The position numbers and the translations under genes are program-made. The notes under the pieces were generated by a model, which saw only the letters and a list, made by a program, of their open reading frames with translations, had not been told where the DNA came from and did no database searches. Below, in pieces: positions 1,152 through 40,204 of a stretch of 41,021 nt of DNA. Numbering within the stretch: position 1 is the first letter of the stretch; every line of letters starts with the position of its first letter. The stretch comes from an uncultured Pirellulales bacterium (GTDB lineage Bacteria > Planctomycetota > Phycisphaerae > Sedimentisphaerales > Anaerobacaceae), in contig CAYSTP010000002.1 of assembly GCA_964434085.1 (NCBI GenBank), positions 1-41,021 of the forward strand, in the 5' to 3' direction.

Positions 1152-1844
1152 GTGAGTAAGAAGGTCATAATCATAACAGCAGCAGCGGGCCTGGTAGGTT
1201 TTGCAGCTACTTTTGGTCTGTCCTTTATGAAAGGCAAAAAAGCTGCCAAAATCGCAGCTGAGCAGCAGGCACAGGCGCAAGCCGCTCAGGCAGCCGCCGA
1301 AACCGAAGACACAAAAATCGCACAAGCTCTCGGCAAAAAGAATACGAACCTGTCACTGACGGAAAAACAGCTCGAAGGGCTTATCTATGATGTTCGAGAC
1401 AAAATACGTGAATACAACAGGAGAATGAATGAGCTCAGCTCCACCGAGGAAAGAGTCAGAATCGCCCAGGCCCAGTTGAAAAAGGATATCGAGGAGCTGA
1501 CGGACCTGCGCACCGAGCTGGCCTCGACCGTCGCAACTCTGAAGCAGGAACACGAGAGATTGCTCAAAACTCGAATTGAAATCAAAAAATCAGAGCAGCA
1601 GAACCTCGCGAGCATAGCAGCCACCTACGACAAAATGAACGCCGGCGGAGCCGCTGAAATATTCACCAACATGAGCAAGCTCGATACGGAGCAATCCAAG
1701 GGACTGACTGATGTGGTTAAAATTCTGTACTACATGAACGACAGAACCAAGGCAAAGATCCTGGCTGAGCTGGTTAATACCGAACCTAAACTGGCGGCGG
1801 TATTAAGTCAGGAGCTCAAAAGAATTAAAGAGGTCGCACAGTAA
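1152..1844 (+). CDS. FlbB/YlxF/MotE-family flagellar protein (N-terminal TM helix, coiled coil, MgtE_N-like C-terminus)
   Basis: GTG start 7 nt after AAGGAG. N-terminal hydrophobic helix IIITAAAGLVGFAATFGLSF. The C-terminus AAEIFTNMSKLDTEQ..VVKILYYMNDRTKAKILAEL resembles the MgtE_N-like domain of proteins that follow fliJ in Bacillus and spirochete operons. Confidence 0.6.
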   Translation: MSKKVIIITAAAGLVGFAATFGLSFMKGKKAAKIAAEQQAQAQAAQAAAETEDTKIAQALGKKNTNLSLTEKQLEGLIYDVRDKIREYNRRMNELSSTEERVRIAQAQLKKDIEELTDLRTELASTVATLKQEHERLLKTRIEIKKSEQQNLASIAATYDKMNAGGAAEIFTNMSKLDTEQSKGLTDVVKILYYMNDRTKAKILAELVNTEPKLAAVLSQELKRIKEVAQ

Positions 1845-1845
1845 G

Positions 1846-2622
1846 ATGGACATTGCAACAATAATCGGAATCCTGCTCGGCTTTTTCGTAATCATACTGG
1901 CAATTGTCGGCGGCTCCGGCGGCAGTTGGCAGATTTTTGTCAACCTGCCCTCGCTGGCCATCACCATCGGAGGGATGCTCTGCGCAACACTGATTCATTT
2001 TTCGCTTCCGCAGTTCCTCGGAATATTTGCCGTCATCAAAAAGACTATTGTCAGCAAAATTGCACCGTCGTCGCAACTGATTCAGAACATGGTGAACTTC
2101 GCAGCTATCAATCGCCGTGACGGGGCCCTCGCTCTGGAGCAGGAAATCTCAAAACTGCATGACCCGTTCTTTGTTAAGGGTCTGCAGATGCTCGTTGACG
2201 GCCAGAACGACGAGGCCATTCGTAACATCCTGAGCCTCGAAATTGATAACCTCAAAACGCGGCACTCGACAGGGAAAAAGATTCTCGAGTTCATGGGCGC
2301 CGCCGCGCCTGCCTTCGGTATGATTGGCACTCTCATCGGACTGGTTCAGATGCTGACAAATCTGTCATCGCCGGACCAGATTGGCGGGGGCATGGCAACG
2401 GCACTTCTTACAACCTTTTACGGCGCCTTCGCCGCGAACCTCGTCTTCCTGCCGCTGGCGGGCAAGCTGGGTATATATTCCCAGGCCGAGAGCACCAGCA
2501 AGGAGATGATAGTCGAAGGAATCTGCGCAATTGCCCAGGGCGAAAACCCAACGGCCGTCAGAGAAAAAATGCATGCCTTCGTCTCACAAAGCAGACGAGA
2601 AGAAGTAAAGGCTAATGTTTAA
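1846..2622 (+). CDS. motA: Flagellar stator protein MotA/PomA
   Basis: 258 aa with four predicted TM helices. Contains the MotA/TolQ/ExbB channel signature ...AAPAFGMIGTLIGLVQML...ALLTTFYGAFAANLVFLPLAGKL. Confidence 0.9.
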   Translation: MDIATIIGILLGFFVIILAIVGGSGGSWQIFVNLPSLAITIGGMLCATLIHFSLPQFLGIFAVIKKTIVSKIAPSSQLIQNMVNFAAINRRDGALALEQEISKLHDPFFVKGLQMLVDGQNDEAIRNILSLEIDNLKTRHSTGKKILEFMGAAAPAFGMIGTLIGLVQMLTNLSSPDQIGGGMATALLTTFYGAFAANLVFLPLAGKLGIYSQAESTSKEMIVEGICAIAQGENPTAVREKMHAFVSQSRREEVKANV

Positions 2623-3314
2623 TGGCACGAGAAAGACCACCTGCCCCACAGGACGAAGACCCTGGCGCACCGGAATGGATGGTAACATTCAGCGACTGTA
2701 TGACGCTGCTGCTGACATTCTTTGTACTGCTGTTGACCTTCTCCAGCTTCGATGAAAGAGTCTTCAAAAAATTACGCGCCATATACTGCGACGCCTTTCC
2801 AACGATTCACTCAAGAGTTCGTGCAAGCAAGGAATCACTGCTCGAAATCGAACAGCTTCGCTACCTCGAGGATATCGACAAGGGCAGTGAAAAAGCCACC
2901 TATGAACTCGGCTCCGAAGGAGTTCTGCATGAGCAGCACACAAACGACTATAAAAAGCACAAGGTCTTTCTGATAAGGTCGGACGAAGTCTTTTGGGGAA
3001 AGGGCACGGCGATGTCACAACAGGGCCGTGAAACACTTTCGACATTGGCCCGGTTTCTCAAAGACATGCCCGAAAACGTGGTAGTCAGCGAGAATAGCCC
3101 ACAGCGAAACGACCCCGAACTAAGTATGGCTCGCGCCTGGGCGGTAATCGAACATCTGACAAGTCAGCATGGTTTGGATATAGACCGCTTCAATGTTTCG
3201 GCAGGGTCCACCATAGGGCAAACGGGCTTCGAATTATTCAGCCTGACCGAACAAGACAACCAGCCACGGCGGTTGCTTGAAATAGTACTCTTGCAGCGGA
3301 GCCTGTGTAATTGA
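2622..3314 (+). CDS. motB: Flagellar stator protein MotB, paralog 1 (OmpA-like C-terminus)
   Basis: Its ATG overlaps the motA stop. PEWMVTFSDCMTLLLTFFVLLL matches the MotB TM helix with the conserved proton-relay Asp. C-terminal LSMARAWAVIEHL...RRLLEIVLL is OmpA-like. Confidence 0.8.
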   Translation: MARERPPAPQDEDPGAPEWMVTFSDCMTLLLTFFVLLLTFSSFDERVFKKLRAIYCDAFPTIHSRVRASKESLLEIEQLRYLEDIDKGSEKATYELGSEGVLHEQHTNDYKKHKVFLIRSDEVFWGKGTAMSQQGRETLSTLARFLKDMPENVVVSENSPQRNDPELSMARAWAVIEHLTSQHGLDIDRFNVSAGSTIGQTGFELFSLTEQDNQPRRLLEIVLLQRSLCN

Positions 3315-4039
3315 GAAGAAAAAGACGCTCACAATCCGGCCAAGGCGGCCCGAAGGTGCCCGGCTACATCGTAACTTTCAGCGACATGGTTACACTGTTG
3401 CTGACCTTCTTCGTAATGCTTCTGAGCCTGGCCACCACACAGGACCCCGAGATGTTCAATTCCGGAAGAGACTCCTTTGTAAAATCGCTCAAGGGACTCG
3501 GACTCGGCATGCTTATCGGCAAGGACCAGACCATTAACTTTACAAATCCCAAGATAAAATATCCGATTCAAGACCCTGAGGACACCCGGAACAAACGGAC
3601 CATAGACGCCAAGGAAGAAAGAACACGCCGCTTATTCAATCAGCTTCGCAACTCGGCAAAAACGATGCCCAGTCAGATACCGGGCCAGCGATACGATTTT
3701 CCCGTGACCGGTGTGCGATTCGCCACCGCAAGCACTGAATTGGACACCGCTGCAAAGCAGTCGCTTAGTGAGTTATGTAAAAAGCTCTACCGCGACCTGG
3801 AACCCAAACCGGCGCAGCTCTACGTGCTGGGACTGACCGAGGAAGGCTCCGACGACAGAGAGCAATGGACGCTCTCGGCGCTGCGGGCAAAGACCGTCGC
3901 CGATTTTGTTGCCGAAACCTTCCCCGAACAGAACCGCCCCGCCGTTTACTCCTGGGGCACGGGACCGGGCCGAATGTGGAGCGGTGATAACAGTGCTATC
4001 CCGAAGGGCTGCCAAATCGTTATCGCCGTCCTCAGGTAA
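3311..4039 (+). CDS. motB: Flagellar stator protein MotB, paralog 2 (OmpA-like C-terminus, divergent)
   Basis: TTG start overlaps the stop of paralog 1, with GGAG 9 nt upstream. PGYIVTFSDMVTLLLTFFVMLLSL repeats the MotB TM/Asp motif. C-terminal TLSALRAKTVADFV is an OmpA-like remnant. Confidence 0.75.
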   Translation: MRRKRRSQSGQGGPKVPGYIVTFSDMVTLLLTFFVMLLSLATTQDPEMFNSGRDSFVKSLKGLGLGMLIGKDQTINFTNPKIKYPIQDPEDTRNKRTIDAKEERTRRLFNQLRNSAKTMPSQIPGQRYDFPVTGVRFATASTELDTAAKQSLSELCKKLYRDLEPKPAQLYVLGLTEEGSDDREQWTLSALRAKTVADFVAETFPEQNRPAVYSWGTGPGRMWSGDNSAIPKGCQIVIAVLR

Positions 4040-4197: not shown

Positions 4198-4665
4198 GTG
4201 ACTGCAAAGACAGTAAAAATCGTTGCCTTTTCCCTGGCAGCCCTGCCCCTGTTTTGGCAGGGTATTGTTGCGCCTGCCGCCGCAGCGCCGAACGAGCCTC
4301 TGCGTCCAGCCGCTACACTGCCGGACTCCATATTCGCACGCGACCCCAACTTTGCCGTTGGGGCAGACCGGCAGTTCGACACAGGCGGAATATACTGGAG
4401 GATGATGCTGGCCATCCTGCTCGTATTGGCCCTGGGTATCGCTGCATACTACGTCTCTAAAAAAGTCAGCGGCAAAATTGTCAATCTGCCAAACCGGCAG
4501 ATTAAGCTCGTTGAATCTCTCTACTTAGGCTCGAGAAAAGCGCTGCATCTGATAAAGGTCGGCGATAGAAGTATCATCGTTGGAACCACGCCGACCGCTA
4601 TTACCAGAATCGCCGACCTCGGCCAAAACGTTGGCGGCTCATCCGCGGCGGATGAGCCAAAATAG
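4198..4665 (+). CDS. fliO: Flagellar biosynthesis protein FliO
   Basis: Small protein with one central TM helix (MMLAILLVLALGIAAYYV) followed by LVESLYLGSRKALHLIKVGDRSIIVGTT, typical of FliO. It lies immediately upstream of fliP. The start (GTG 4198) is uncertain. Confidence 0.6.
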   Translation: MTAKTVKIVAFSLAALPLFWQGIVAPAAAAPNEPLRPAATLPDSIFARDPNFAVGADRQFDTGGIYWRMMLAILLVLALGIAAYYVSKKVSGKIVNLPNRQIKLVESLYLGSRKALHLIKVGDRSIIVGTTPTAITRIADLGQNVGGSSAADEPK

Positions 4666-4672
4666 TTGCTCT

Positions 4673-5470
4673 ATGTCACTCGGACGCTTCAAAATAATAC
4701 TGTGCACGATGGTTCTGCTGCTTACGGGGTTATCCCGGGCGGCGGAAAATACTCCCGCTTCAACAGCAGCAAACCAGATGCCGAGCATGTCCGATTTGAT
4801 GACGCTTATCGACAAGACAGCTACCACCGAAACCGAAGGCAAAGACTGGTCAACACCTGTCAAACTCGTAATCATCTTCGCAGGATTAGCGATACTTCCA
4901 AGCCTTCTGGTTATGATGACCTCCTTTACTCGGATAATCATCGTCCTTGGTTTCATCCGCAGGGCCTTGACTACACAAACCATACCACCGAATATCGCTA
5001 TCGTCGGACTGGCGCTGTTTTTGACGCTCTTTACAATGGCGCCTACCTTTTCAAAGATAAACACAGATGCAATTCAACCGTACATAAACGACCAGATTGA
5101 TTTCGGTACCGCGGCAAGCACGGCCTCTAACCATATCAGAGAATTCATGCTGAGGCAAACCAGAGAGGCCGACCTCGCCCTTTTCGTCAGGATTTCCAAC
5201 ATTCAGCCGCCGCAAACTATGACCGACATACCGCTGCACATCGTGGTGCCGGCCTTTATCATAAGTGAATTCAGGACGGCCTTTGAAATCGGCTGTCTGT
5301 TGTTTATTCCGTTTTTGCTGCTGGATATGGTCATTGCTGGTGTGCTTCTCAGTGCCGGTATGATGATGCTTCCTCCGATGATGGTTTCACTGCCCCTGAA
5401 GCTCATCCTGTTTATTCTGGTTGACGGCTGGGGCCTGCTTGCCAAAAGCCTGAGCCTTAGTTTCCATTAG
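4673..5470 (+). CDS. fliP: Flagellar export gate protein FliP
   Basis: FTRIIIVLGFIRRALTTQTIPPNIAIVGLALFLTLFTMAPT and the C-terminal PFLLLDMVIAGVLLSAGMMMLPP are FliP hallmarks. I placed the start at ATG 4673, which yields a signal peptide MSLGRFKIILCTMVLLLTGLSRA. The longest ORF (4580) would overlap fliO by 86 nt. Confidence 0.93.
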   Translation: MSLGRFKIILCTMVLLLTGLSRAAENTPASTAANQMPSMSDLMTLIDKTATTETEGKDWSTPVKLVIIFAGLAILPSLLVMMTSFTRIIIVLGFIRRALTTQTIPPNIAIVGLALFLTLFTMAPTFSKINTDAIQPYINDQIDFGTAASTASNHIREFMLRQTREADLALFVRISNIQPPQTMTDIPLHIVVPAFIISEFRTAFEIGCLLFIPFLLLDMVIAGVLLSAGMMMLPPMMVSLPLKLILFILVDGWGLLAKSLSLSFH

Positions 5471-5490
5471 ACCCTTTCGGGAAAAACGAT

Positions 5491-5760
5491 ATGGACAGCA
5501 ATTACGCCCTGTACCTCGGCCGCCAAACCCTCGAGACCGCCCTTATTGTTTCAACCCCGATACTTCTTACCTGTATGATAGTCGGCCTGGTTATTACACT
5601 CATTCAGGCGGTAACGTCCATACGCGATATGAGTCTGACCATAGTCCCGAAACTGCTCGCCGTAGGCGCGGTATTACTGATGCTCGGCGGATGGATGCTT
5701 GACGTTATCCTGAGATTTACAGCCGAGGTCTTCAGCCAGATTGAACACGTCGGGCAATAA
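5491..5760 (+). CDS. fliQ: Flagellar export gate protein FliQ
   Basis: 89-aa two-TM protein, ...PILLTCMIVGLVITLIQAVTSIRDMSLTIVPKLLAV, in the fliP-fliQ-fliR order. Confidence 0.9.
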   Translation: MDSNYALYLGRQTLETALIVSTPILLTCMIVGLVITLIQAVTSIRDMSLTIVPKLLAVGAVLLMLGGWMLDVILRFTAEVFSQIEHVGQ

Positions 5761-5762
5761 AC

Positions 5763-6515
5763 ATGGACCCCATAGCCGAAAAACTGCTCTCCTTTGCAAT
5801 GGTACTGACAAGGGTATCGGCTTTGGTCCTGGTCGTACCGGTATTCAGCTGGCAAAGTATTTCCGTTCGTATCAAGGCCGCCACCACTCTGCTTCTGACC
5901 ATTTTCTTTTTTATGGTAAAGGCTCCTCAGGTCAGTGTCGCTTCAGATTCGGCTCTGCGGGTCATATTGATTCTGGCTATAGAGGCTACGTACGGCCTGG
6001 CCCTGGGGCTGATTCTCGCCCTTGTTTTTGGGGCGGTAGGCCTGTACGGCAGAATCGTAGAAAGACAGATGGGCCTTGCACTGGCCGAGGTAATCGACCC
6101 GATGACCGGCGAAAGAGCACAGCCGCTCAGTATGCTGCTTGAGATGCTGTTCATAATCATGTTTCTCGCCGCCAACGGCCATCACTTATTCGTGCTGACA
6201 ATTTCGCGAAGTTACGATGTGTTCACCGCCGGAACAGTGCCCAGCATCTCCATCCTGACCGCAGGCGTAATGGAGGCCGGCTCGACAATGCTCATCGCCG
6301 CTCTTAGATTGGCCGCCCCGCTGCTCGCCGCGTTTCTGTTGCTGCTGGTTGCTCTTGGAGTTTTGGCAAGAGTTGCGCCGGAAATGAATATCCTGTTTAT
6401 CTCTCTGCCCATGCGGGTCGGCCTGGGACTTATCATGGTGATGGTTTTCATTCCGTTTATCGATGGCTTCGTCTCGGAATTTGCCGAGTGGATGAATAAG
6501 CTCCTGCCGTTGTAA
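5763..6515 (+). CDS. fliR: Flagellar export gate protein FliR
   Basis: 250-aa polytopic membrane protein following fliQ. Contains GLALGLILALVFGAVGLYGRIVERQMGLALAEVIDP, typical of FliR. Confidence 0.9.
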   Translation: MDPIAEKLLSFAMVLTRVSALVLVVPVFSWQSISVRIKAATTLLLTIFFFMVKAPQVSVASDSALRVILILAIEATYGLALGLILALVFGAVGLYGRIVERQMGLALAEVIDPMTGERAQPLSMLLEMLFIIMFLAANGHHLFVLTISRSYDVFTAGTVPSISILTAGVMEAGSTMLIAALRLAAPLLAAFLLLLVALGVLARVAPEMNILFISLPMRVGLGLIMVMVFIPFIDGFVSEFAEWMNKLLPL

Positions 6516-6541
6516 ATTTGTACTGAGCGTTATGAAAGAAA

Positions 6542-7606
6542 ATGCCTGAAACCGCAGCCGACAAGACAGAACAGCCGACACCGCGGCGAATCCGAAAGGC
6601 CCGTGAGCAGGGCCAGGTCCCGCAGAGCATGGAGTTCAGCTCCGTCGTCACTCTCGTCGTGATGGTGGCCGCCGTTGCCCTGCTGGGACCGCATCTTCTT
6701 AACTGGACCACCAGTGAGCTGCGACAGGGATTTTCCGCCAATAATGATGTCTTTGCCAGCACACAATCATTTATGAGTTTTGTAAGTACAAAGCTTACCG
6801 GTGCACTGTGGGTAACGGCCCCAATCCTTGCCGCACTGGTTGTGGCAGGTATAGCAGGCAATGTTTTTGTCTCAGGACCTAACTTCAGCGCAAAGGCCGT
6901 TCAATTCAAACTCAATGCGATTAATCCCGTCGCCGGATTCGGCAGACTCTTCAACGTAAAATCACTCGTCAAGCTCATCTGCTCAATATGCAAGATTATC
7001 TTTATCGGCCTCGTCGTCTGGTTCTACGTGCAAAGCAGGATAGAGGCTCTGGCAACTTTGCGCTGGGCCTGGTCAACGCAAATCTTAGTCGCAATGGCGC
7101 AACTGATTTTGGGAATGATGATCCGAGTCTGCATCGCACTGCTGGTCGTTGCGATGGCGGACCTTGCCTGGCAAAAATGGAAATACCTCCAGGACCTCAA
7201 GATGACCAAACAGGAGGTCAAAGACGAACGCAAGGAAACTGAGGGTGCTCCTGAGGTAAAGTCCCGAATACGCAGAATTCAATATGAAACCGCCCTGAAG
7301 CGAATCGTGCAGGAAGTGCCAAAAGCAAGCGTCGTGCTTGTTAACCCGACTCATTATGCCGTAGCCATCCGCTACGACGCCAAGACAATGGACTGCCCCG
7401 TACTCCTGGCCAAAGGCGTTGACTACATGGCCGAAAAAATCCGCGAGGTGGCCCGAGCCTACGGTGTGCCTATACTGCGAAGGCCCGAGCTGACCAGGAC
7501 CATTTACAATACTCTCAAACCTGGTCAGCCCATACCGCAGGAGCTTTACGTCGCCGTCGCCGAAGTGCTCGCCTTGATTTACAGACTCAAACGAAACAGA
7601 GCTTAA
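6542..7606 (+). CDS. flhB: Flagellar export switch protein FlhB
   Basis: N-terminal DKTEQPTPRRIRKAREQGQVPQS, four TM helices, and the NPTH autocleavage site (VLVNPTHYAVAIRY). Confidence 0.95.
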   Translation: MPETAADKTEQPTPRRIRKAREQGQVPQSMEFSSVVTLVVMVAAVALLGPHLLNWTTSELRQGFSANNDVFASTQSFMSFVSTKLTGALWVTAPILAALVVAGIAGNVFVSGPNFSAKAVQFKLNAINPVAGFGRLFNVKSLVKLICSICKIIFIGLVVWFYVQSRIEALATLRWAWSTQILVAMAQLILGMMIRVCIALLVVAMADLAWQKWKYLQDLKMTKQEVKDERKETEGAPEVKSRIRRIQYETALKRIVQEVPKASVVLVNPTHYAVAIRYDAKTMDCPVLLAKGVDYMAEKIREVARAYGVPILRRPELTRTIYNTLKPGQPIPQELYVAVAEVLALIYRLKRNRA

Positions 7607-7613
7607 AAAGCAA

Positions 7614-9080
7614 ATGAGAGAATCCGGTAAAAGCGAATTCGCCGTCAACGACTACAAGAGATTGAGCAGGCAGAACAATCTGCTCTTTATCGCAGGCACT
7701 GTTTCTGTGCTGGCAGGCCTGTTCTTTCCGAAAATCCCCGCTCTTGTTGACCTTCTCATGATTTTCAGCCTGACTTTATCGGCGGCCGTTGTAGTCATCT
7801 GTCTGCGCGGCAGCAAACCCACCGAGCTGACTGGTTTGCCTCTTCTTGCAGTCACCGCCATTGCAGCCCTGCTAACAGCGACCATAGCCTCGGCAAAACT
7901 TCTAATTATTGGAGATGCCGCCGGTCTAATCATTACACGCGTGGCACGGTTCAACATCATAGCTAATATCTTGCCGGCGCCACTGAGTGCTGTGGTCTTT
8001 ACAGTAGTATCAATTGTGCTCCTTATAGCCGCGGCGAAATCAACAAGGAAGCTTCTGCTCAACAGCAAAACTTATCTCGAAGAGGTTACCTCCGTTGAAC
8101 AGACCCAGCCCGAATTTAATCTTGTCACTGCTGAGAGCGAACAGGAAAACCTAACAGCAAAAGAAAAGGGATTCTTTTATGCCGCCCATGCCTTCGGACG
8201 TCTGGCTGTATGGCTTTGTGTGCTGATATCATCGGTTGTTATGCTCAGCCTTTTTGGTACGGCTCTTGCCGACAAAACGCTCGTCAGTCTCGCTGCAGGT
8301 TCCGGCATAATTCTGCAGGGCTCAGCCTTTTTCGTAGCCCTCGCCGTATCTCATTTGACACGTAAGATTGCCTTACAATCATCGCAGAGGAATCGTATGA
8401 CCGAAGAGCAGTTCCAGCAGCGTATTAAGGTCGTCGCACGCGAAGTGGCTGCGATACAAACAGACAGCCATCTGCATCGTCCATCGAGCGACGAGCTACT
8501 CCACAGGACGCCCTACGGCCCAGCGACGAGCGACGCATCTTTGTTTGACTGTAACGAGTTCGAAGATGAAGCTTCGTACGACTGTGTGACAAATCTGCTG
8601 ACTGAATCGGGCGGTGGCAAAGTGCTGCTTATGGCCGCCTGTGGGTCGCAATATGCGCCTGTCACAATCCCTGTCAATATCGCCGTGCGCCTGGCTGCAA
8701 GAGGGCTAAAGACCCTGATAATCGACTTCGACCTGAAACGCTCCGCTGTGCAGCGGGTCTTCGAAACAGGCGACTGCAATTCGCGGGCGGTGAAAACATG
8801 TATTGAAAATATCTCGCTGATTTCCGGCAAACATCTTGCCCCTGCAAAAACGCACATGCTGCAACAATTATTCACAAAGGCGGAAAAGCTCTATGACTAT
8901 ATTATAGTCTATGCTCCGGATGCCGCTGTCGGGCCGCAAATGTCCGAATTCTTCACGACAGCTATGTTCTTCGGCACAGAAAATACCGTAACAAATCCAG
9001 TATTGGATAACTTAATCAACGAATTGAGCAAAACCGCTTGCCGGGTGCTCACACCCTCACCTTTGCTTCAGACAGCCTGA
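7614..9080 (+). CDS. Atypical fusion: degenerate FlhA-like transmembrane domain plus MinD/ParA/FlhG-like domain lacking the Walker A P-loop
   Basis: It occupies the flhA position after flhB. The N-terminal ~260 aa resemble the FlhA TM region by eye, but the FHIPEP loop and the FlhA C-domain are absent. The C-terminal KVLLMAACGSQYAPVTIPVNIAVRLAARGLKTLIIDFDL...YDYIIVYAPDA resembles a MinD fold, with ACGSQYAP where GKGGxGK[ST] should be. Confidence 0.55.
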   Translation: MRESGKSEFAVNDYKRLSRQNNLLFIAGTVSVLAGLFFPKIPALVDLLMIFSLTLSAAVVVICLRGSKPTELTGLPLLAVTAIAALLTATIASAKLLIIGDAAGLIITRVARFNIIANILPAPLSAVVFTVVSIVLLIAAAKSTRKLLLNSKTYLEEVTSVEQTQPEFNLVTAESEQENLTAKEKGFFYAAHAFGRLAVWLCVLISSVVMLSLFGTALADKTLVSLAAGSGIILQGSAFFVALAVSHLTRKIALQSSQRNRMTEEQFQQRIKVVAREVAAIQTDSHLHRPSSDELLHRTPYGPATSDASLFDCNEFEDEASYDCVTNLLTESGGGKVLLMAACGSQYAPVTIPVNIAVRLAARGLKTLIIDFDLKRSAVQRVFETGDCNSRAVKTCIENISLISGKHLAPAKTHMLQQLFTKAEKLYDYIIVYAPDAAVGPQMSEFFTTAMFFGTENTVTNPVLDNLINELSKTACRVLTPSPLLQTA

Positions 9081-9091: not shown

Positions 9092-11149
9092 TTATGTCCC
9101 CAGACCCAGATAGCTCATCTGGCTTCGCAGCAGTGAAAGCATCTTTTCCAGCCGGGCAAAACGCCCAATCAGCCTTTCTTCCCTTACCTCCAGACGCTTT
9201 TCTTCAGCGTCAATCTTGTCCTGCAGCAGTTTAATCTGGTCGCTTATATGTTCCTGGTCAATCTGAATCGAGCCGGTAGTGGCCTTGAGCATCCTGTCAA
9301 GCGTATCTTCCATGGCGCCGGTGAACCCCTGCTTTACCCGTATGGTTGCATATATCGTGCCGCCCGGCGTTCCGGTAGTCGGCGCGGTTACCTGAAGACC
9401 GTTTTCCCCGTAAACTGCATTGCCGTTATCATCGAACGTACTATCGCCGGTAATCACATTATCGACAATGGTAGCCGCCCGATACGCCGAGTCACTTTCA
9501 CTCGAAAGTTTGAAATACGCCTCGGACAGATTGCCCGAACCGTCATAGACTACTTTGACCCGGTAGCTGCCGGCCGTAGTGTAGTCGCTGCTGGCGCCGT
9601 AGAACCTGACGTTGGCACCGTCGCTGCTGCCGCTCTTGTCCGCGCCGAGCAGGGCCAGAACACCGAGATAATCCTCGGCTATCGCCTCATCAAACTCGCC
9701 CGCGTCAAACGAGAGCATACCGTCTTTGTCAAGCTCAAAACCTATATGCGCAGGTGTAAGGAACGTGTCCAAATCTTCGATAAAGCCCATGGTCTGAGAA
9801 TAAAGCGGCGAGCTAATCTGCTCCTTTATCGTCCTGACCACAAAATCGCCCATCAAAATGCCCGCCGTCTTGAGCACATCGTTGTAACCGGTCTTCTCCT
9901 TGATATAAGCGACAGCGTCGTTATAGGCCTCGACAAACTTATCAATCTTGGTCTTTATCGAAGCCACGTCTCTGGTCATGGTAATCTGCTCGCCGGTTTC
10001 ATCAGTCGTATCGTGCAAATGAAGCGTCACACCGCTGATAACGTCGTCAATAGTGTTCGAGCTTCGCGTAATCCAATCCTCGGCCGCCGGCGGCCAGCCG
10101 TCTACCTTAATCTGGCTGTCCTGTGCCTGCTGCGTCTCGGTAAAGTCAGTCTCGGCAAAACCAACAAGCGACGCATCCACATCGCCGCCCTCGGTAACAT
10201 CCCAGTCGGTCGTCTCAGTGGGCAAGGTCAGTGTAGCTGTACTGCTGGTAAAGTCGAGGTCAATCGATATACCACTATCGCCCGATGTATCGTCTGTCAG
10301 AATAATCTGGCCGTTCTCGAAAACCGCCTTGGCCACACCATCGAATGCATCGTTTATTTCACCAATCAGGTGCTCGATACGGGTATTGGCAGTTACCGTA
10401 AGCTGAACCGGCGTTATCGCAGCACCGCTATGGTCCGTGCCGCTGATGGTTATCGTGTCGCCGGTGCCGAGCGTGCCGTCGAACTGGTCCAGCTCAGTAA
10501 TCTTTGTGCTCAGTGTGGCGTTGTCGCCGTCGGCGGTAAACTCCCAATTCATCTGCCACACCTCTGTACTGCTGGCATTGACGGAAATCCCGTAATCAGT
10601 ACCCGCATCGTTTCCGCTTAATACCAGATGATACCCATCGTTATAATAAAGCAGACCAGCCGTTACACCGGGGTTGTTGGCGTCATTATTTATCAGCCCG
10701 ACCAGATCAGAAAGCGTTGTGTCGGTGGTTGTTGTAATTATCACCTCCTTGTGATTGTACGAGTAAATGAATGTGCCCTCATCAACATAGTCCTCGGCGT
10801 ATTCCAGACCGGCGGTGTGGACCCATCGCTCGGCGCTGGCTAATTGATTGACAACAATCGTATGATTGCCCTCGAAGGCGTTATACGTCGCCTCGGCGCT
10901 GATTATGTCCGCATCGCTGCTGGCCACATTAAAGGACCGAAGCTTGTTCGCATCGGACAAATCACGCACCGTCGTTCGCAGAGTACCGAGCTTGCTTTCG
11001 ATATCACTCAGGGCATCTTTCTTCTCGTCATAGCCCTCTTTGCGGGTTTCATACATAGTAACCGTGCGACGTTCAATCGCCATAAGCGCCGCAATCAACG
11101 CCTGAGTATCTATACCCGTCGCAAGGCCGGGAAGTTGTATCGTTGACAT
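9092..11149 (-). CDS. fliD: Flagellar filament cap protein FliD (HAP2), enlarged
   Basis: N-terminus MSTIQLPGLATGIDTQALIAALMAIERRTV and a C-terminal coiled coil (LQDKIDAEEKRLEVREERLIGRFARLEKMLSLL) are FliD hallmarks. The central region is Thr/Ser/Asp/Gly-rich. Confidence 0.9.
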   Translation of the reverse strand: MSTIQLPGLATGIDTQALIAALMAIERRTVTMYETRKEGYDEKKDALSDIESKLGTLRTTVRDLSDANKLRSFNVASSDADIISAEATYNAFEGNHTIVVNQLASAERWVHTAGLEYAEDYVDEGTFIYSYNHKEVIITTTTDTTLSDLVGLINNDANNPGVTAGLLYYNDGYHLVLSGNDAGTDYGISVNASSTEVWQMNWEFTADGDNATLSTKITELDQFDGTLGTGDTITISGTDHSGAAITPVQLTVTANTRIEHLIGEINDAFDGVAKAVFENGQIILTDDTSGDSGISIDLDFTSSTATLTLPTETTDWDVTEGGDVDASLVGFAETDFTETQQAQDSQIKVDGWPPAAEDWITRSSNTIDDVISGVTLHLHDTTDETGEQITMTRDVASIKTKIDKFVEAYNDAVAYIKEKTGYNDVLKTAGILMGDFVVRTIKEQISSPLYSQTMGFIEDLDTFLTPAHIGFELDKDGMLSFDAGEFDEAIAEDYLGVLALLGADKSGSSDGANVRFYGASSDYTTAGSYRVKVVYDGSGNLSEAYFKLSSESDSAYRAATIVDNVITGDSTFDDNGNAVYGENGLQVTAPTTGTPGGTIYATIRVKQGFTGAMEDTLDRMLKATTGSIQIDQEHISDQIKLLQDKIDAEEKRLEVREERLIGRFARLEKMLSLLRSQMSYLGLGT

Positions 11150-11301: not shown

Positions 11302-12270
11302 CTATTGAAGCTTCGATTTTACATCCTCTATAACGCTCCGCAGCGTCTGTTCCAGTGACATTTTGGGTTCATAACCTGTTACTGCCTTAATCCTGTCAAG
11401 ACACGGCACCCGCCGCATCATATCATCAAACGGCTTGCCGTAAGCCTGTTCATAAGACAGGTACTGTTTTTTGCTGCTGCTGCCGGTAAGTTCAATTATC
11501 CTGTCGGCAAGAGCCTCAATAGTCACCTCCTCATCTGAACCTATGTTGTAAACACCTCCTGTGGCCTTGTCGCACTCCATCAACGCAATAAATCCGCCAA
11601 CAACGTCGCTCACATGTGCAAAACAGCGGCTCTGTTTGCCGGTACCATAAATATGGATAGGCTTATTTCTAAGCGCGCTGGTTACAAACCGCGGCACTAC
11701 CATACCGTATTGGCCGATTTGCCTCGGCCCGACTGTATTGAAAATCCGCACAACAACTACCGGCAGATTGAACTGGTCCCGGTAAGCAAACGCCAGAAAC
11801 TCATCTATCGCCTTACTGCACGCATAAGACCATCGCGCAAACCTCGTGCTGCCCAACACTGCATCATCATCCTCTGAAAACGGCACCGCCTCGCTCCTGC
11901 CGTAAACCTCACTGCTGGAGGCTATAAGCACTTTTTTGCCGTATCTGTTCGCACTTTCAAGCACGACCTCACAGCCGTGAATGTTGGTCTCGATGGTTCG
12001 CACCGGCTCATCCACAATAAGCTGCACACCCACCGCCGCCGCAAGGTGATAAACAACATCGCACTGCCTTATCAGGGCATCCATTATCTGTGCGTTGCGC
12101 ACACTGTCCTGCACGAAACTAAAGGACTTATTATCCTTCACTGATTGCAGATTTTTCAGACTGCCCGTACTGAGGTCATCTACAACCATCACCTGGTGAC
12201 CGGTCTGCAGCAGTTTTTCCACCAGGTGCGAGCCGATAAAGCCCGCTCCGCCCGTAACCAATGCTCTCAT
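11302..12270 (-). CDS. NAD-dependent NDP-sugar epimerase/dehydratase (extended SDR family)
   Basis: MRALVTGGAGFIGSHLV Rossmann motif, catalytic YACSK (YxxxK), SSSEVYG. Substrate specificity cannot be called from the sequence alone. Confidence 0.9.
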   Translation of the reverse strand: MRALVTGGAGFIGSHLVEKLLQTGHQVMVVDDLSTGSLKNLQSVKDNKSFSFVQDSVRNAQIMDALIRQCDVVYHLAAAVGVQLIVDEPVRTIETNIHGCEVVLESANRYGKKVLIASSSEVYGRSEAVPFSEDDDAVLGSTRFARWSYACSKAIDEFLAFAYRDQFNLPVVVVRIFNTVGPRQIGQYGMVVPRFVTSALRNKPIHIYGTGKQSRCFAHVSDVVGGFIALMECDKATGGVYNIGSDEEVTIEALADRIIELTGSSSKKQYLSYEQAYGKPFDDMMRRVPCLDRIKAVTGYEPKMSLEQTLRSVIEDVKSKLQ

Positions 12271-12326: not shown

Positions 12327-15300
12327 CTAAGCGTTCACCAAAACAGCGTTCGAAAGACTTCCCTCAAGCCGCTCACATCTGTCTATAAGCTTTCTAATGT
12401 TACCGTTGCCGGGGTCGATTTCGAGGCAGCCTCTGAGTTGCTCACCTGCGCTTTGAAGGGCTGCTCCGGCATAATTCGGCATCTTAACCTCGATATAGGA
12501 TTGTCCCAGCGATATAAAATTCATCGCAACCAGACATTTGAAGTGCAGTTGCCTCATGCCGGATGGAATTTGCTCCCACTGCACCTCAGGAAACAGCTCA
12601 TCGTGCGAGAACGTCTCGGCGTAACTCTTTACAATTCCAAAATGCGCTCGCGCCTTATCTACACTGTACTGCCGCGACAGACTTTCAGAGGCCAATCGCC
12701 TATAATACAAAGCAGCTTTTAAGTGATGGGCCTTCAGTCCCGCCTTTACAAAGCGCCTCATCATATCATAATCTTCACCTATCCGCAGGGTCTCGTCGAA
12801 CAAACCTATTTTATCGAACACGCGCCTTCGAATGCAGGTTCTGAAGGGAACAACAGGAAACCCCGCACGGAATAAATCCCTGATAAGAATCCTGCGGTCG
12901 GCATATTCCGGTCGCTTGATTATCCGAATGGGTTTGCTGTCTTCCTCAACAAGATAATCATCGCAGTAAACCACATCAGCATCCTGATGCTCGTAGAACT
13001 CAGTAAGATGTCGGCCAATAAAGTCAACAGCGATAAAGTCGTCAGCATCGACCTTTATCAAAAACTCGCCGCGCGACTGCCGGATGCCTTCATTATGCGT
13101 TGCCGCCAGACCCCGATTAGCCTGTTTGAAGTATCTTATATGGTCATCTTTATAACTGCGTACTATTTCCTCCGTTCCGTCGGTGGAGCCATCATTGATT
13201 ATTACCAGCTCGAAGTTCCTGTAGTTCTGAATCAGCACAGACTCAATGGCCTGCCTTATATACTTTTCAGCATTGTACGCAGGCAAAATCACAGAAACGA
13301 GCCGATTTCTTCCGGTATGATATGTTTCAAACGTAGAGATATACGAGGTGCCGTACCTCTTTCCCACCTTATGCCGCTCGTAATAACTGTGAAACTCGTT
13401 GCCGTGCTCGATACCTTCCCGGTTGAAATAGTAAAGCCCAAGAAATTCCGGAATATGTTTGAAACAGTACCCTTCGGAAACACGTAACCAAAAATCCCAG
13501 TCGGCTGCACAATCCAGCGTCTCATCGAAATATCCTAATTCCTCATGCAACGAGCTGCGCCACATCGGCTGAGAACCTACACAACATCCCAAAAGCAGTC
13601 TTTCCCGGCTGTAATCCGGCTGCCGGTACGTTTCAACTGCATTGTGTTTCTCAAAAGTAGCGTTGGGCGTGTCCGTACATATTTGGTCGCCGTATACAAG
13701 AGCAACCTCAGGATTATTTATTAACTCATTTGACAAAATCTCAAGAGCATCCCTCCGATGCCGGTCGTCAGTATTGGCGTTAGTTAGAAACCTGCCACTG
13801 GCGGCCCTCACCGCACGATTCCACGCTGCATAAACACCCTCCTTTTGTTCGGTCTTTATATAGACTATGTTGCTATATCCGGCTTGAAACTCCTTCACAA
13901 TCGCCTCTTCGTTCTGTTGCGAGCCGCTGTTGACAACTATAATCTCAAGCCTGTCAGCAATGGTCTGGTTCTCCAGGTCTTCGAGGCAGCCCCTGATAAA
14001 TTTTTCCGAGTTATAAGTGGATACTATGGCAGAGACAAGATATTTATATTCCTTGTTATCCGACCTCACTTCCGACAGCGGGGTAACTGCCGGTTTGCCG
14101 TCTATGCCAAGACTGGCCCGAACAGCTTCTTCGACCATCTCGAATGAAATAGCCTTTATGCACTTAATATCCTTTCCGTATTTGCACTTCCAGTTACAGC
14201 CGAAACAATCCATTTTCTTATAAACCATTTTTGTCAGTTCACTGTAAGGCCAAAACCTCCCAAAGTGTCCTCCGCCCACTAACACTACGTGGGGACAACC
14301 TGCTACAACAGCAAGATGTGCCGGAGCCGTACATGGACTCACGCATAATCTGGACCTTGAAATAAGAGCCGCCAGTTGCCTTACCGACGTTTCCCCGCAA
14401 AGGTTATGGACATTCGGATGGTCCGTAAGCAATATAATCTTGTCCGCATTTAGCTTGTTTGCTTCCAGGCCGCAAATAATGACAGGGATATCCCGATGAC
14501 TTGAAATTAATTTTGACCAACCATCGATGCGCCAATCACGAATTGGAGATTGTGCAAATGGAGCAATAAGAATCGGATTTTCCACACGAATACGCTCTAA
14601 CAAACTTTCCGCAAAATCAACGTCATCTTTCGTAAACCACGCCGCAGGCGTATATTCTCCCTCTATTTTTGCGCCCAACTGACGCAGGAATTCTTCATTT
14701 CGAAACGTTTCCAGCTTAATTCCTTCCGAGGCCGGCAATATCCTCGTGAAGTATTTATTATTATTCTCAATCTGCTCGGCGGTCTGATTGGCGGTATCGC
14801 CTGAAGTGGTAATCCGCTCTTTAGCACCGCTGTTCATAGCGATAAAATCGCTGACCCTGTCTCTCGAATGGGCCGGGCAAATCGCAATGTCATATTTTCC
14901 TGACTGTATCTGACGTATAAATAGGCCGGCATATTCCTGGTCAGATGTAATTTTAGTACGGTTAAAAGTTATAATTTCATCTATATACGGATTGGCTTGT
15001 GCCAAATCGCCAACCTTATCAGCAACGACAAGGGTAATATGGCAGTTGGAATATAACTGCCTGAAATATTGAAATGAACCGCCGAATATCACGAGGTCCC
15101 CGATAGAATCGCTGCGAACTATAAGTACTTTCCTTATGTCACCACCAACTCCACAAAGGCCGGCATTTATCTTATGAATATTGTCCGCCGTCATTTCTAT
15201 CTTGATCTGCGTCCCATGATTACAGGGGGTTGTCAGCAATTCTGCCTTCAAACCACAGGACTGAATAAATTCCCAGACTCTATGGCCTTTCTGGGCAGGC

Positions 15301-18300
15301 ACAGAAGTATCAATCCGATGATTCACAGGACAAATGCCTGCATCATCTATAATTACTATCCCACCCTCTGCCATCATAGGTATAATCAACTGGAATTCAT
15401 TAAAGATAAAGTCTTTGTCATTAACAGAATCCAGAAATGCAAGGTGAAATTTCTGTTTCTCTAATCCATCCAGATATTTAATTGAATCCGACTGTATAAA
15501 TTCAATATTTGTTAACTCATGGCAAAGCTGCTTACTTACCCTCAAAGAATCCTCGCTTATATCAACGGATATAAGCTTGCCTCTATCGCCAAGTGAACGT
15601 GAAATATGATAAGTGCTGAAATGCTCTTCGTAAAAGCTGCGAATCGTACCTGTTTCGATTGCTGAAATCTTTTCATCCACAAAACTGCTTTTAAGCTGTT
15701 CGACGGCGGCAATTACATGCTCCATTGCCTTACCGCTGGAAGGTTTGGCTGCTTCTTCAAGCACAAAATCCATCATTACTTCCGGATGTGTCCCCTTGAA
15801 TTCTTCAGTATGAGAACTTTTATCACCTGTCCATATTGGATACTTGGCGTCAATATCGACACGATTCCACGGCTTCCATTTCATATAGCACTGTTCATAC
15901 CATTGCTCCAGGTCAACACCCCACGATTTTCCCCAGCCGTACCTGCGATAAAGCTCTATTTTCTGCTTTACTTGCTTGTCCAGAACGTAACTATAATGGT
16001 AAAATTTGACTCCCATCCTCCGCGTGGCAGTTCCGTCCAGAAGCTTCATTTGCTCCGTTGTCTTATCGATTCCAGGCCAAACCATCGTCGGTGGACGGTG
16101 CGTGGTAAATACGGCGCCCGGCACATATTTAAACAGCCTGCGATAATGGTTTCGCGGTTCGTAAAATTTCGGCGAAGTGAAAATATAATCCAGCCCCTTC
16201 CAGAAACTATCAGGAATGAAGTTTACCTGTGTGATTGTAGGGTCCTTTTTAAGAATACTCCTTATTTTCTCAAGGTCCTCACCTTTATAAACCTCATCGG
16301 AATCTATGAGCCAGACATAATCACCGGTGATACGCTTCAGCGCCTCGTTTTGCATATCGCACTTTTCCAGCCATTTGCCCTGAATAAGTTTTATCTTTCC
16401 TGCCGGGTCAGGGAACGACTTTATAAACTCAACCGTACCGTCGGTCGAGCTGCCGTCTGGATTGGCTGCGAACATGCATTTCTCCACCGCCCCTTCGACA
16501 ATAATAATCTCATTCGCAAAATCATAGATGCTCTTTAGGCTGTATTCTATGAAAGGCACCCCGTTAAGGACAATCATTACGAATGAAAATTTAGGCCCTG
16601 TTTCTGACATCTGCAAAGTCGTGGAAGTTTCGTTCTTGTTAATGCATTTTGCCGGCAGTTTTTCTTTCTCCGCCACCCGCCTCATGGCTGAAATACTGAC
16701 TCCGTGTTTCAGGTTCAGATAGTTTTCGTTTACTTTGTACCACTCCTGCCGAGCTTTTTTAGCTGCACCAGCCGTAGCATCGTGGTAGATAACAGCTCGC
16801 GGCCAATAAATTATCTTATTAAAACATTTGTATCTTTTGCCAATTCTATAACTCAAATCAGAACCTTCGGCTCCGAAAAGCAATGGGTCCATACCATTTA
16901 TATCTAAATATATCCCGGTAAGAAAAGCTGAGTTACCTTCCTGGTCACAGAAGGTACAGAAAGACCCATCGCCGCGGTCGTAGTTAAAAGCCTGACGGTT
17001 TGCCTCAGTGTCGGTTACCGGCAGCACCTTGCCCCGAAAACCGAAGATATCATATCTATTGAAAGCCTCTTTTATAGAACCGATGTAATCAGGACCAACG
17101 AACGCATCATCATCAAGAAAAGCGACAATTCCGCCTCTGGCAAAACAAGCTCCTATATTCCGCCCTTCTGAAAGGTAAAGATTCGCAGGGCATTTGATAT
17201 ACTGGTCGCAAAGCGGTTTGATAATACCCTCATCAGTCAGTCCGTTATCTACTACAATTACTTCGTACTTTTCGCGGGGAGTTTGCTGCTTTTCGACTGA
17301 TTCGATACACTTCCTGACATCTTCGGTTCTGTCATAAGTTACAATCACAACCGATACATCAACTTCTTTGGTCTTTTCGCCCCTGATAAATCGGGGCAGA
17401 CTTCTATAGTCAATCGAAGTTTTGTATTTGTGCATCAACTCGAAAGCCTCTTCAAATCTCTCCTTATTAAACTCGTCTTGTGCCTTCAAGAAATACTTTA
17501 CCGCTTCGCAATTAGCTTCGCCGCTTCCAACCGCTTGCAAAGGAGATGTTTGCATGGATTCATTTGGCTCTGCATGCCCTTTTGTGAGCATTATCCTCTC
17601 AAACATCTTCCTGTAGTTTTCCGCCTGTTTATTCCAGTCCCAGACTTGTATCGATTTGAGAATCTCCGCGGACATCTTTAATCGCAAAGCCGGATTGTCA
17701 CGAAGCAAAATTAGTTTATTCTTTATATCGTTGACATCCCGCTCGATAAAAAATCCGTTCTTGCCGTCTTCAATCAACTCCGGCATATTGCCAACACGAG
17801 TTGTCAGTAAAGGCGCTCCGCACGCCGCCGCCTCAAGACACGGATTCGGCGTACCTTCGGCGGTACTGGCACAGATATACACATCAATCGAGCGGTAAAA
17901 CTCGAGCATTTCGTCTCTGTTGCGCCATTTATCTTCGCGCGCCGCCACCACCAGTTCTACTCCCTCAACTGAATTCGTCGCCGGTACTATGAAGTCATGG
18001 TAGCCCCGTGTATTGCCGTGATTCTTTATACTGCCCGCCCAGCCGACTCTAAGTTTCTGATGCGCTTGCCTGCTGGGTGCAGGCCTAAAGAATTCGGTAT
18101 CAACCCCATTGGGCGTACAGAAGACCGGAACCTCGAAACACGGTGAAAATTCCTTGTACAAAAGCATACTGTTTACGAATATCCCGCGAGCCAGCTTCCT
18201 CATAAATCCAAGAATCTCATCCCGGCCCCCGGCCATCTCCTGATGCGAACAGATTCCAATCAACAGCTTATGTTTGTTTTGGATAAACACCTCGAGCAAC

Positions 18301-26001: not shown

Positions 26002-26055
26002 GGGTTTTGCTCCCTGTTTCATCAAGAAACCCGAGATAGCCCACGAAAACAGCTT

Positions 26056-26094
26056 GGGGCCCCTCAAACGCGATAGGTTGCGCTTGGGGAGTCC
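26056..26094. repeat. GC-clamped palindromic repeat, family 1, copy 1
   Basis: GGGGCCCCTCAAACGCGATAGGTTGCGCTTGGGGAGTCC. The arms CCCTCAAACGC / GCGCTTGGGG can pair. It lies in the leader between the sigma-54 promoter (26134-26148) and the TPR-GT start. Confidence 0.8.
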
Positions 26095-38733: not shown

Positions 38734-38761
38734 CCCATTTTGCCTCTGTTTGCAAAATAGG
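38734..38761. repeat. Palindromic repeat, family 2, copy d (leader of the activator gene)
   Basis: CCCATTTTGC-ctctgttt-GCAAAATAGG. It ends 12 nt before the ATG at 38774, and its 3' arm overlaps the only SD-like AGGA. Confidence 0.65.
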
Positions 38762-38773
38762 ACTCAGACACGC

Positions 38774-40204
38774 ATGACATTAAACATCATCCTTGCCGTA
38801 AGCAGACAACCCCGGTTACAGAAGATAGCAGGCCGACTCGCAAAAAAACTGTTGATTGCCGACGACCCGGCAGAAGCGTTTGCTCTCGTAGTTGGCTGCG
38901 GCTGTGACCTTGCCCTGTTCGACGATGTTTTTACGCCCGCTGATGTCGGACATTTCATAAATACGACCGATAATCATCATCTCAATATTCCGGTTATGGT
39001 TGTCAGCGCTCAGGACAAGCAAACTTATTTGGAACAGGAATTCGTCTCGGCCGGTGCAATCAGCTACCTTTGCGGCAAAACCGAACCGGACCGGCTTGAG
39101 AAAATTATTAGCGACTTGCTCAATTGTCCCGCCAAAGAGAAACCTTCAAATAAGCAATTGCGGTACTTCATAGATGAGCTTGCTGCTTCAACATCGCTGG
39201 CCGGAAAAAGTGACGCAATACAGCATGCACTGAAGATGACGCGCTTAGTGGGCTCAAGCCAATGTAACCCCATACTGGTCATCGGTGAAACCGGGACCGG
39301 CAAGGAGCTCATAGCGCGAGCGATACACAGCATCAGGCGTCCTGACGAACCTTTCGTTGCTGTCAACTGCGCTGCGCTGACGGCTACTCTGCTCGAAAGT
39401 GAGCTCTTCGGACATGTCAAGGGCTCTTTCACCGGAGCGGACAAAGAAAAGACCGGCCTGCTGGAACTGGCGGGAAAGGGCACAGTTTTTCTGGATGAAA
39501 TATCAGAAATGCCTCTGGAGCTTCAGGCAAAGCTGCTTCGCATCCTGCAGGAAAAGACCTTCAGAAAGGTCGGAGGGACAAAGGCAATCACCTGCAACGC
39601 CACCATCGTCACTTCCAGCAACCGCAATCTGCTCAGAGAAGTACAGGAAAAAAGATTCCGGCAGGACCTTTATTACCGTCTGAACATATGTCCGATAAAA
39701 TTGTCGCCCTTACGCCATGAACGACGAAAGCAGGACATTCGGCTGCTTGCCGAATACCTGCTCAACAACTCGATGGTCTGGCCTCAAAAGAGTAAAGGCA
39801 TCAAATCTCTGACGCCCCTGGCGCTCGAAGCCCTGGAAAAACACGACTGGCCGGGAAATGTACGCGAGCTAAAGAATGTTATCGACCGGGCGATTCTGCT
39901 CGAAAACACAGACAGAATCGGCTTAAGCAGCATCGTGGTTGAGCAAGCCGAAGACGCCACATCTTTAAGCGAAGCAAGCCGCAATCAGGTCAACGACTTT
40001 TCCATCGCCGCAGCCGAACGGCATCTCATCGCCCGGGCCTTGAGAGAAACGGGATGGCAGAAAACAAAAGCTGCGGCTCTGTTAGGCATTACCAGAGCCA
40101 CCCTGTATGCCAAAGTAAAGCAATACAATATCGCAGATACCCCGAACAAACTCCGACATAAAGCACACGAGACTATCGAGCCCGAGCCGGTTACAGCTCG
40201 GTAA
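38774..40204 (+). CDS. Sigma-54-dependent transcriptional activator (bEBP; FleQ/FlrA/FlbD-like) with atypical receiver-like N-domain
   Basis: AAA+ core: [19 protein letters not shown] (Walker A), [15 protein letters not shown] (GAFTGA loop variant), TVFLDEI (Walker B). C-terminal Fis-type [25 protein letters not shown]. The N-domain lacks the acidic DD pair of phosphorylatable receivers ([10 protein letters not shown]). I placed the start at ATG 38774; the maximal ORF starts at 38750. Confidence 0.9.

Follow-up and report, generated by a model that had tools for sequence, protein, structure and literature searches.

Which protein drives flagellar export in a bacterium whose gate genes are followed by a shortened FlhA fused to an unrelated domain, and what does the fused protein do? 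FlhA is the ion-powered engine and the substrate sorter of the flagellar and injectisome export apparatus, and to our knowledge this holds for every flagellar and injectisome system studied; the structure of its membrane domain was solved only recently. The question arises from a contig of an uncultured Pirellulales bacterium (GenBank assembly GCA_964434085.1, contig CAYSTP010000002.1), of which we analysed 41,021 nucleotides. This 41-kb stretch, the window, is a flagellar gene cluster almost throughout. Behind flhB it carries an open reading frame (ORF; 7614..9080, forward strand) of 488 amino acids plus stop with an ATG start, here called X. A first-pass annotation of the DNA had described X as filling the flhA position with a decayed FlhA-like membrane domain joined to a P-loop-less MinD/FlhG-like domain. 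We find that X is best described as a paralogue of the export-gate engine and a double pseudo-enzyme, conserved over a large part of the Planctomycetota, and we assign a probability of about 0.6 to its serving the flagellar export apparatus as an accessory scaffold and not as a real FlhA.

Homology of the membrane half of X to FlhA becomes clear at the level of the family. Taken alone, X gives a sub-threshold match to the Pfam FHIPEP family (E=7.8e-4, amino acids 33-140), with 18.5 bits against a cut-off of 29.1 for PF00771 and 16.5 bits against a cut-off of 772 for TIGR01398. A profile of 15 orthologues matches the solved FlhA at E=5.6e-9 and aligns amino acids 7-257 of X with FlhA 5-276, in the register that had been drawn by eye. 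The link is strengthened by P0016, a distant family member of 590 amino acids that matches X at E=1e-38 and FHIPEP at E=1.9e-62; along the 657 positions of the FHIPEP profile the match of X ends at ~108 and that of P0016 at ~260. P0016 has an intact 'KQISIDSDLNAG' loop, a C-terminal domain as in X, and the same position between flhB and a convergent fliD. Since this less diverged subtype keeps the FHIPEP loop, X is by sequence a descendant of FlhA.

The FlhA match of X stops after transmembrane helix 6 (TM6; FlhA ~276). The C-terminal ring (FlhA_C) is missing, as first noted, and so are the FlhA linker and TM7-TM8, whose loss had been passed over. The juxtamembrane helix of X (…EEQFQQRIKVVAREVA…) is conserved and soluble, helical in the model and invariant at Q266, I271, A275 and E277, and its 'R-x-K/N-V-V-A' core is common to most of the fusion subtypes compared. 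At the other end of the membrane half, L17, Q20, L24 and F25 are invariant among the X orthologues. The replacement of the cytoplasmic FHIPEP loop by acidic sequence was read correctly (8 Asp/Glu against 3 Lys/Arg over amino acids 147-190); the KQxxIDxDLNAG motif and the R147/R154/D158 charge ring are gone with it.

To judge whether such a protein could work as an engine, we took the roles of individual FlhA residues from Salmonella mutations (PMC3139655) and from the structure of the export apparatus (PMC13308203) and set them against the family alignment. In Salmonella, D208 is essential, and proteins with the D208A/K/N changes still enter the apparatus and inhibit the motility of the wild type, D208A being dominant-negative (PMC3139655); the R85-D208 bridge, D249 and N137 are likewise essential (PMC13308203). 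At the proton-path positions R85, D208, D249 and N137, X has Leu, Leu, Ser and Leu, and only Q254 is kept. P0016 has R147→D, R154→E, D199→A, D208→A and D249→A, with a Glu one turn past the D208 position. Because proton-path residues are lost in both subtypes, neither X nor P0016 is capable, by the Salmonella model, of conducting protons or acting as the export engine. The 2026 structure defines the FlhA core as TM2-6, with TM1 and TM7-8 touching neighbouring subunits (PMC13308203), and X retains this subunit core together with the TM1 arm. X thus resembles FlhA/SctV (FHIPEP) in its N-terminal segment and TM1-TM6, in the kept D45 and Q254, in basic residues at R94 and R270 and in its place beside flhB in the gate gene row. 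It differs from FlhA/SctV in its missing parts, its degenerate loop, its foreign C-terminal domain, its bit scores under the cut-offs and the loss of R85, N137, R147, R154, D158, D199, D208 and D249.

The C-terminal domain tells a similar story of a kept fold and lost chemistry. X alone yields a sub-threshold match to AAA_31 (E=4.6e-4). A profile of its C-terminal ~180 residues retrieved 86 homologues, and a 102-sequence profile of the domain matched, in the PDB, CapB (1.9e-14), BceF (1.8e-10) and MinD (4.7e-10), followed by VpsO, Wzc and Soj. The AlphaFold (AF2) model of the domain on this 102-sequence alignment has a predicted local distance difference test score (pLDDT) of 90, its C-terminal end being of low confidence, and its top 50 Foldseek matches in the PDB are all bacterial tyrosine kinase (BY-kinase) domains (E~1e-7, TM-score 0.56-0.67). 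The fold reading uses this model alone, as the full-length model has a pLDDT of 59 and weak Wzc matches only. The best NCBIfam match, TIGR01007 'tyrosine autokinase', is sub-threshold as well (38.6 bits, cut-off 108). Similarity to FlhA and to a MinD-type fold is therefore significant in profile searches, and the fold class proposed at first, MinD/ParA/FlhG, was right. The nearest relatives named were not: by sequence and predicted structure the domain is closest to the tyrosine kinases Wzc, CapB and BceF, with MinD and Soj more distant.

Loss of the Walker A Lys and the Walker B Asp indicates that the domain should neither bind nor hydrolyse ATP canonically. In the alignment the Walker A 'GAGKST' corresponds to 'YAPVT' of X, within the stretch 'SQYAPVT', which places Pro349 at the Lys position in essentially the register first proposed when ATP binding was predicted lost; to this we add the change of the Walker B Asp to Tyr433. 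There is no Tyr within the last 55 residues, where BY-kinases have the tyrosine cluster that serves for autophosphorylation, and ExxRxxR is not conserved either, its Arg positions aligning to D/E and T. The replacement motifs are themselves held constant. 'PVTIPVN' does not vary in the alignments of the fusions, and its conservation among the 102 family members is at least 90%, which argues that the pocket was remodelled and then conserved, not merely decayed; DxDLxR and VYxP are likewise constant in the fusions and strongly conserved in the family of 102. Four cysteines are also conserved: C396 ('TC-x-x-N') and C476 are invariant in the fusion alignments, C476 nearly so in all 102 members, and C313 and C388 are invariant within the window's subtype. 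From this pattern they may form a metal or redox site.

The C-terminal domain can be compared with two known classes. With the BY-kinases Wzc/Etk/CapB/BceF/VpsO (TIGR01007, eps_fam), which give its best sequence and structure matches, X has in common the Walker A' DxD and the general design of a membrane domain that carries a cytoplasmic kinase-fold domain. Unlike them it has an FlhA-like membrane partner in place of Wzz/PCP, and it lacks the Walker A Lys, the Walker B Asp, the tyrosine cluster and ExxRxxR. With MinD/FlhG/ParA (Soj), a class whose flagellar member is FlhG, it has in common the SIMIBI P-loop fold; unlike them it is without the Lys or Gly-rich loop of the deviant Walker A (KGGxGK[ST]), shows no sign of an ATP-driven dimer switch and has no flhF partner nearby, and the class comes after the BY-kinases in the sequence and in the structure comparison. 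By sequence, X is homologous to FlhA and to the BY-kinase/MinD classes, yet lacks the defining features of each.

X belongs to a broad family. Its 15 full-length orthologues are 58-80% identical, with the same length and architecture, and an exhaustive profile search returned 110 proteins at E≤1e-30, each the representative of a 50%-identity cluster and most of them 450-640 amino acids long and matched end to end; the first canonical-length FlhA appears at about 1e-30. Family members carry the NCBI label 'FHIPEP family type III secretion protein [Planctomycetota bacterium]', and an exact-sequence look-up of X found no record. The gene order is constant, fliOPQR-flhB→X←fliD, and recurs in L003, L004, L005, L008 and L092-L097; a third subtype (P0117) has exactly the gene order of the window from fliG to fliD on contigs of up to 247 kb. 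Two relatives from a genome collection are metagenome-assembled genomes (MAGs) named 'uncultured Pirellulales bacterium'. In L008 (3601-5323) gene calling splits the fusion into a pair of overlapping ORFs, FHIPEP of 282 and C-domain of 306 amino acids; since fliP and fliQ are also fragmented there, this probably reflects sequencing frameshifts rather than a natural split. The ratio of nonsynonymous to synonymous substitution rates (dN/dS) of X is 0.13-0.23 in four comparisons (flhB and fliR, 0.09-0.13), and that of the C-domain is 0.12-0.13 in three of the four and 0.23 between the window and L004. X is conserved, does not evolve like a pseudogene and is kept by purifying selection. By sequence it is a conserved, Planctomycetota-specific offshoot of FlhA, and neither Pfam nor NCBIfam has a family for its architecture of FlhA TM1-6 with a dead BY-kinase fold.

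The C-domain also has a life outside the fusion. Most of its homologues are stand-alone proteins of ~237 amino acids from Phycisphaerae/Sedimentisphaerales (e.g. P0057, P0092) that are anchored by one N-terminal TM helix, in place of the FlhA TM1-6 of X, and share the dead motifs ('LPVTIPVN', 'LLIDLDLKRDA', '(I/L)INAPS'); some carry the label 'Mrp family chromosome partitioning ATPase' and others are called hypothetical. Two of them, in Phycisphaerae MAGs (L006 10001-10714 and L009 10001-10714), lie near polA, SMC and PMT_2/GT2 genes, each directly preceded by an unannotated ORF of 160-181 amino acids, and the genes adjoining the stand-alone homologues gave no informative family matches.

If X is not the engine, another FlhA has to be encoded in the genome, and a canonical flhA probably exists elsewhere in it. 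Among the ORFs of the window there is no canonical flhA, fliL, fliM, fliN or fliA, and flhF is absent from the window as well. The premise that flhA should follow flhB is enterobacterial and does not carry over: related Phycisphaerae have flhA in a fliL-fliM-fliN-flhA-fliA row. In L011 and L100 the order is σ54 activator, two genes for tetratricopeptide repeat (TPR) proteins, REC-σ54 activator, fliL, fliM, fliN, flhA, an ORF of ~98 amino acids and fliA, and in these and related Planctomycetota the interval from flhA to fliA contains neither flhF nor flhG. The σ54 activator of the window, which closes the contig, has at least 80 matching loci in metagenomes, the best among the matches listed being 51-68% identical. 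Eight of the listed contigs, all of Phycisphaerae type (L014, L016, L018, L021, L024, L029, L033 and L046), share the window's block of flgF, a 421-aa ORF, flgE and flgD next to the activator; their FlgE is 51-63% identical to that of the window, and in all eight a complete flhA follows 8-9 kb downstream of the activator. In L030 the start of flhA is present downstream of a truncated activator. L033 belongs to the Anaerohalosphaeraceae and the L024 type to the Sedimentisphaerales, and the activator marks a synteny block that Planctomycetota classes have in common. By synteny with these relatives, and since only 0.8 kb of the window lies past the activator, the canonical flhA of this genome probably lies just past the contig end, in a fliL-fliM-fliN-flhA-fliA operon; the last 0.8 kb of the window shows no similarity to the gene 3' of the activator in L011. 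Because none was found in the window's own lineage, we infer its existence there indirectly, from gene order conserved between classes, the loss of the proton path in X, the retained FliJ and FlgN, and the absence from the window of flhA's companion genes.

Our preferred reading of X as an accessory scaffold can be laid out as follows. X would be made together with the export gate, and its FlhA-like membrane core would put it at or in the FlhA basket, with TM2-6 as its core and TM1 still able to dock on an adjacent subunit. It would there display an inert kinase-fold domain beneath the gate, as a protein-binding platform or modulator, and protein export would be driven by a canonical FlhA encoded elsewhere. 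The occurrence of the single-TM, stand-alone dead domain in Phycisphaerae, which also have canonical FlhA, provides Rosetta-stone evidence for this reading. It agrees in part with the scaffold suggested by the first-pass annotation: a scaffold linked to the gate fits better than a relic, and no evidence was found that ties X to placement or number control of the FlhF/FlhG kind.

Several observations weigh against this assignment. No contig or genome was seen to hold both X and a canonical flhA, and none was recovered from the window's own Pirellulales lineage, the nameable contigs with a canonical flhA all being Phycisphaerae; the canonical FlhA nearest to the family, P0213, is likewise of Phycisphaerae type. 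Pairing of fusion and canonical FlhA by sample, NCBI accession proximity, guanine-plus-cytosine content and tetranucleotide composition gave no pairing. X is the fastest-evolving protein of the operon (72/70/58/26% identity against 90/87/80/58% for FlhB), and it could have a looser or lineage-specific role. The stand-alone homologues lie outside flagellar clusters, beside polA, SMC and glycosyltransferase genes, so that the C-domain by itself has at most a putative flagellar role, and without a conserved ExxRxxR, the ring-forming motif of BY-kinases, a cytoplasmic ring of X is not to be assumed. Literature searches also turned up nothing on the FlhA of planctomycetes, on paralogues within FHIPEP or on an FlhA-kinase fusion.

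The view that X is a decaying relic of an flhA-flhF-flhG deletion and fusion, or that a full flhA is hidden here by an error of assembly or sequencing, draws on its sub-threshold Pfam matches when searched alone, on the loss of catalytic and engine residues in both halves and on its rapid evolution. Against this, the 15 orthologues and more than 100 clusters keep one length and architecture, dN/dS lies well below 1, with roughly the constraint of FlhB on the C-domain in three of the four comparisons, and the PVTIPVN, DxDLxR and VYxP motifs do not vary among the fusions. Related Planctomycetota have no flhF or flhG between flhA and fliA, and the C-domain, which also occurs by itself in Phycisphaerae, has its nearest relatives among the BY-kinases and not in FlhG. 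Finally, a hidden FlhA C-terminal domain is impossible at this locus because 11 nucleotides separate X from fliD, which also disposes of a full-length flhA masked by a sequencing error. We regard a relic or artefact as effectively refuted and its probability as very small.

A more serious contender, which we nevertheless consider unlikely, takes X for the sole FlhA of these organisms, in which the FlhA_C ring, TM7-8 and the proton path have been replaced and the kinase-fold domain acts as the docking ring. X does lie directly 3' of flhB, the usual place of flhA in many bacteria; the window holds most flagellar genes yet no canonical flhA, and none was recovered from the Pirellulales. BY-kinase domains form rings in Wzc/CapAB, among the structures matched, and P0016 keeps both the FHIPEP loop and a Glu one turn after the D208 position. 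However, D208, D249, N137 and the R147/R154 ring are each needed in Salmonella and are absent from both subtypes. FliJ, FlgN and FliI normally work on the FlhA linker and FlhA_C, and FliJ, FlgN and part of FliI are encoded within the window. The sister class keeps its canonical flhA at another locus, adjoining the synteny block common with the window, which argues for a paralogue rather than a replacement in situ, and fliL, fliM, fliN and fliA, the companions of flhA in relatives, are missing from the window along with it. The Salmonella mutants suggest a different role by analogy, since D208 mutants that are incorporated and dominant-negative make throttling by X conceivable. As a built-in negative regulator, X would co-assemble in the FlhA nonamer like a D208A subunit, or cap the basket, and throttle export, for example at the swarmer-to-sessile transition of budding planctomycetes; both the general idea and this example strike us as rather improbable. 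The kept TM2-6 core and TM1, the missing engine residues and the fast evolution expected of a regulatory add-on are consistent with it. Its support is an analogy only, it leaves the conserved kinase-fold domain unexplained, and a gene co-oriented 7 nucleotides behind those that build the gate would be oddly timed for an inhibitor.

Table 1. Coordinates in the window of X, its parts and neighbouring features
Feature	Position	Strand	Description
X, whole ORF	7614..9080	+	FlhA-TM(1-6)-like domain, linker and dead BY-kinase/MinD-type domain
N-terminal cytoplasmic segment, aa 1-23	7614..7682	+	conserved 'RLSRQNNLLF' start, as in FlhA N-termini
FlhA-like TM1-TM4, aa 24-146	7683..8051	+	D46 (=FlhA D45) and K95 (=R94) kept; R85→Leu, N137→Leu
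FHIPEP-loop remnant, aa 147-190	8052..8183	+	acidic; only 'EKGFFYA' left
FlhA-like TM5-TM6, aa 191-252	8184..8369	+	D199→His, D208→Leu, D249→Ser; Q235 (=Q254) invariant; K251 = R270
Juxtamembrane helix 'MTEEQFQQRIKVVAREVA', aa 253-285	8370..8468	+	stands in for FlhA TM7-8
Linker, aa 286-311	8469..8546	+	variable, acidic, low-confidence in model; much longer in P0016/P0117 subtypes
C-terminal P-loop-fold domain, aa 312-488	8547..9077	+	MinD/ParA/BY-kinase class; predicted catalytically dead
Former Walker A 'CGSQYAPVTIPVN'	8640..8678	+	Lys position = Pro349
Retained Walker A'-like 'LIIDFDLKR'	8712..8741	+	D371, D373, R376 invariant
Former Walker B 'YDYIIVYAPD'	8892..8921	+	Asp position = Tyr433; Asn in stand-alone homologues
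fliO-fliP-fliQ-fliR-flhB (export gate)	4198..7606	+	upstream of X, same strand
fliD (filament cap)	9092..11149	-	converges on X
σ54 activator	38750..40204	+	closes contig; window stops 0.8 kb beyond

X is the last gene of the fliOPQR-flhB strand (Table 1), which reads fliI (3' part), fliJ, an unknown conserved ORF, motA, two motB paralogues, fliO, fliP, fliQ, fliR, flhB and X. Its ATG at 7614 lies 7 nucleotides past the flhB stop (TAA, 7604-7606), with no recognisable Shine-Dalgarno sequence between them, and this spacing suggests translational coupling of flhB and X. The strand facing X carries fliD, an epimerase, a multi-glycosyltransferase/methyltransferase of 3267 amino acids, TPR-glycosyltransferases, a flagellin-family protein, flgK, flgN, flgI, flgH, flgA, flgG, flgF, the 421-aa ORF, flgE and flgD.

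Other features of the cluster are peculiar in their own right. The giant (12327-22130, reverse strand) is a single ORF with at least four glycosyltransferase (GT) 2 domains, GT1, GT9 and two methyltransferase domains; the relatives L004 and L092 encode similarly giant proteins of 3324 and 1518 amino acids, respectively. It is flanked by the epimerase (11302-12270) and the TPR-glycosyltransferases (22363-26067, reverse strand) and stands between fliD and the flagellin-family gene. Given these glycosyltransferase neighbours and this site, the region is probably a flagellin glycosylation island. Downstream of motA are two overlapping tandem MotB paralogues (2622-3314 and 3311-4039, forward strand), the first with the MotB plug only and the second with the plug and a weak OmpA domain, an arrangement kept in L004, L005 and L092. 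The 421-aa ORF between flgF and flgE (34745-36010, reverse strand) has no family or PDB match beyond a faint PilZ hint (E=0.007) and recurs at this position in ~16 Planctomycetota loci at 26-47% identity, which suggests that it could be an unrecognised flagellar component. The 230-aa ORF between fliJ and motA (1152-1844, forward strand) has no family match; its position is kept in L001, L002, L004, L005 and L092, with 45-88% identity in all of these except L005, where the match is positional only, and L100 has a protein of similar size without Pfam match 3' of fliA. We considered these two ORFs as a separate gene for FlhA_C and rejected both, as neither matches FHIPEP or a PDB entry. FlgI, the P-ring protein, is fused to HEAT repeats in the Phycisphaerae loci L006 (1-1419) and L009 (1-482), giving 543-544 amino acids, and has its normal length of 368-372 amino acids in the window and L033.

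A branch of the Planctomycetota thus keeps, in the gate gene row, a second FlhA-derived protein in which the assembly core is left, the engine residues and sorting ring have been shed and an inert kinase fold has been gained. The family is unannotated, labelled so far just as 'FHIPEP family' or 'Mrp family ATPase', and it provides a Rosetta-stone link from the membrane domain of FlhA to a dead P-loop protein that is widespread in the Phycisphaerae. If X were the sole FlhA, it would change what type III secretion is held to need: export in Pirellulales-type flagella would require neither the D208/R85 path nor the chaperone-docking ring of FlhA_C, in whose place a ring or platform of dead kinase folds would act, and FlhA_C and D208 would no longer be universal. 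If X is an accessory subunit, it would be a natural separation-of-function FlhA that shows which parts are enough for incorporation into the gate, and it would point to a further regulatory layer of flagellar assembly in swarmer/sessile bacteria.

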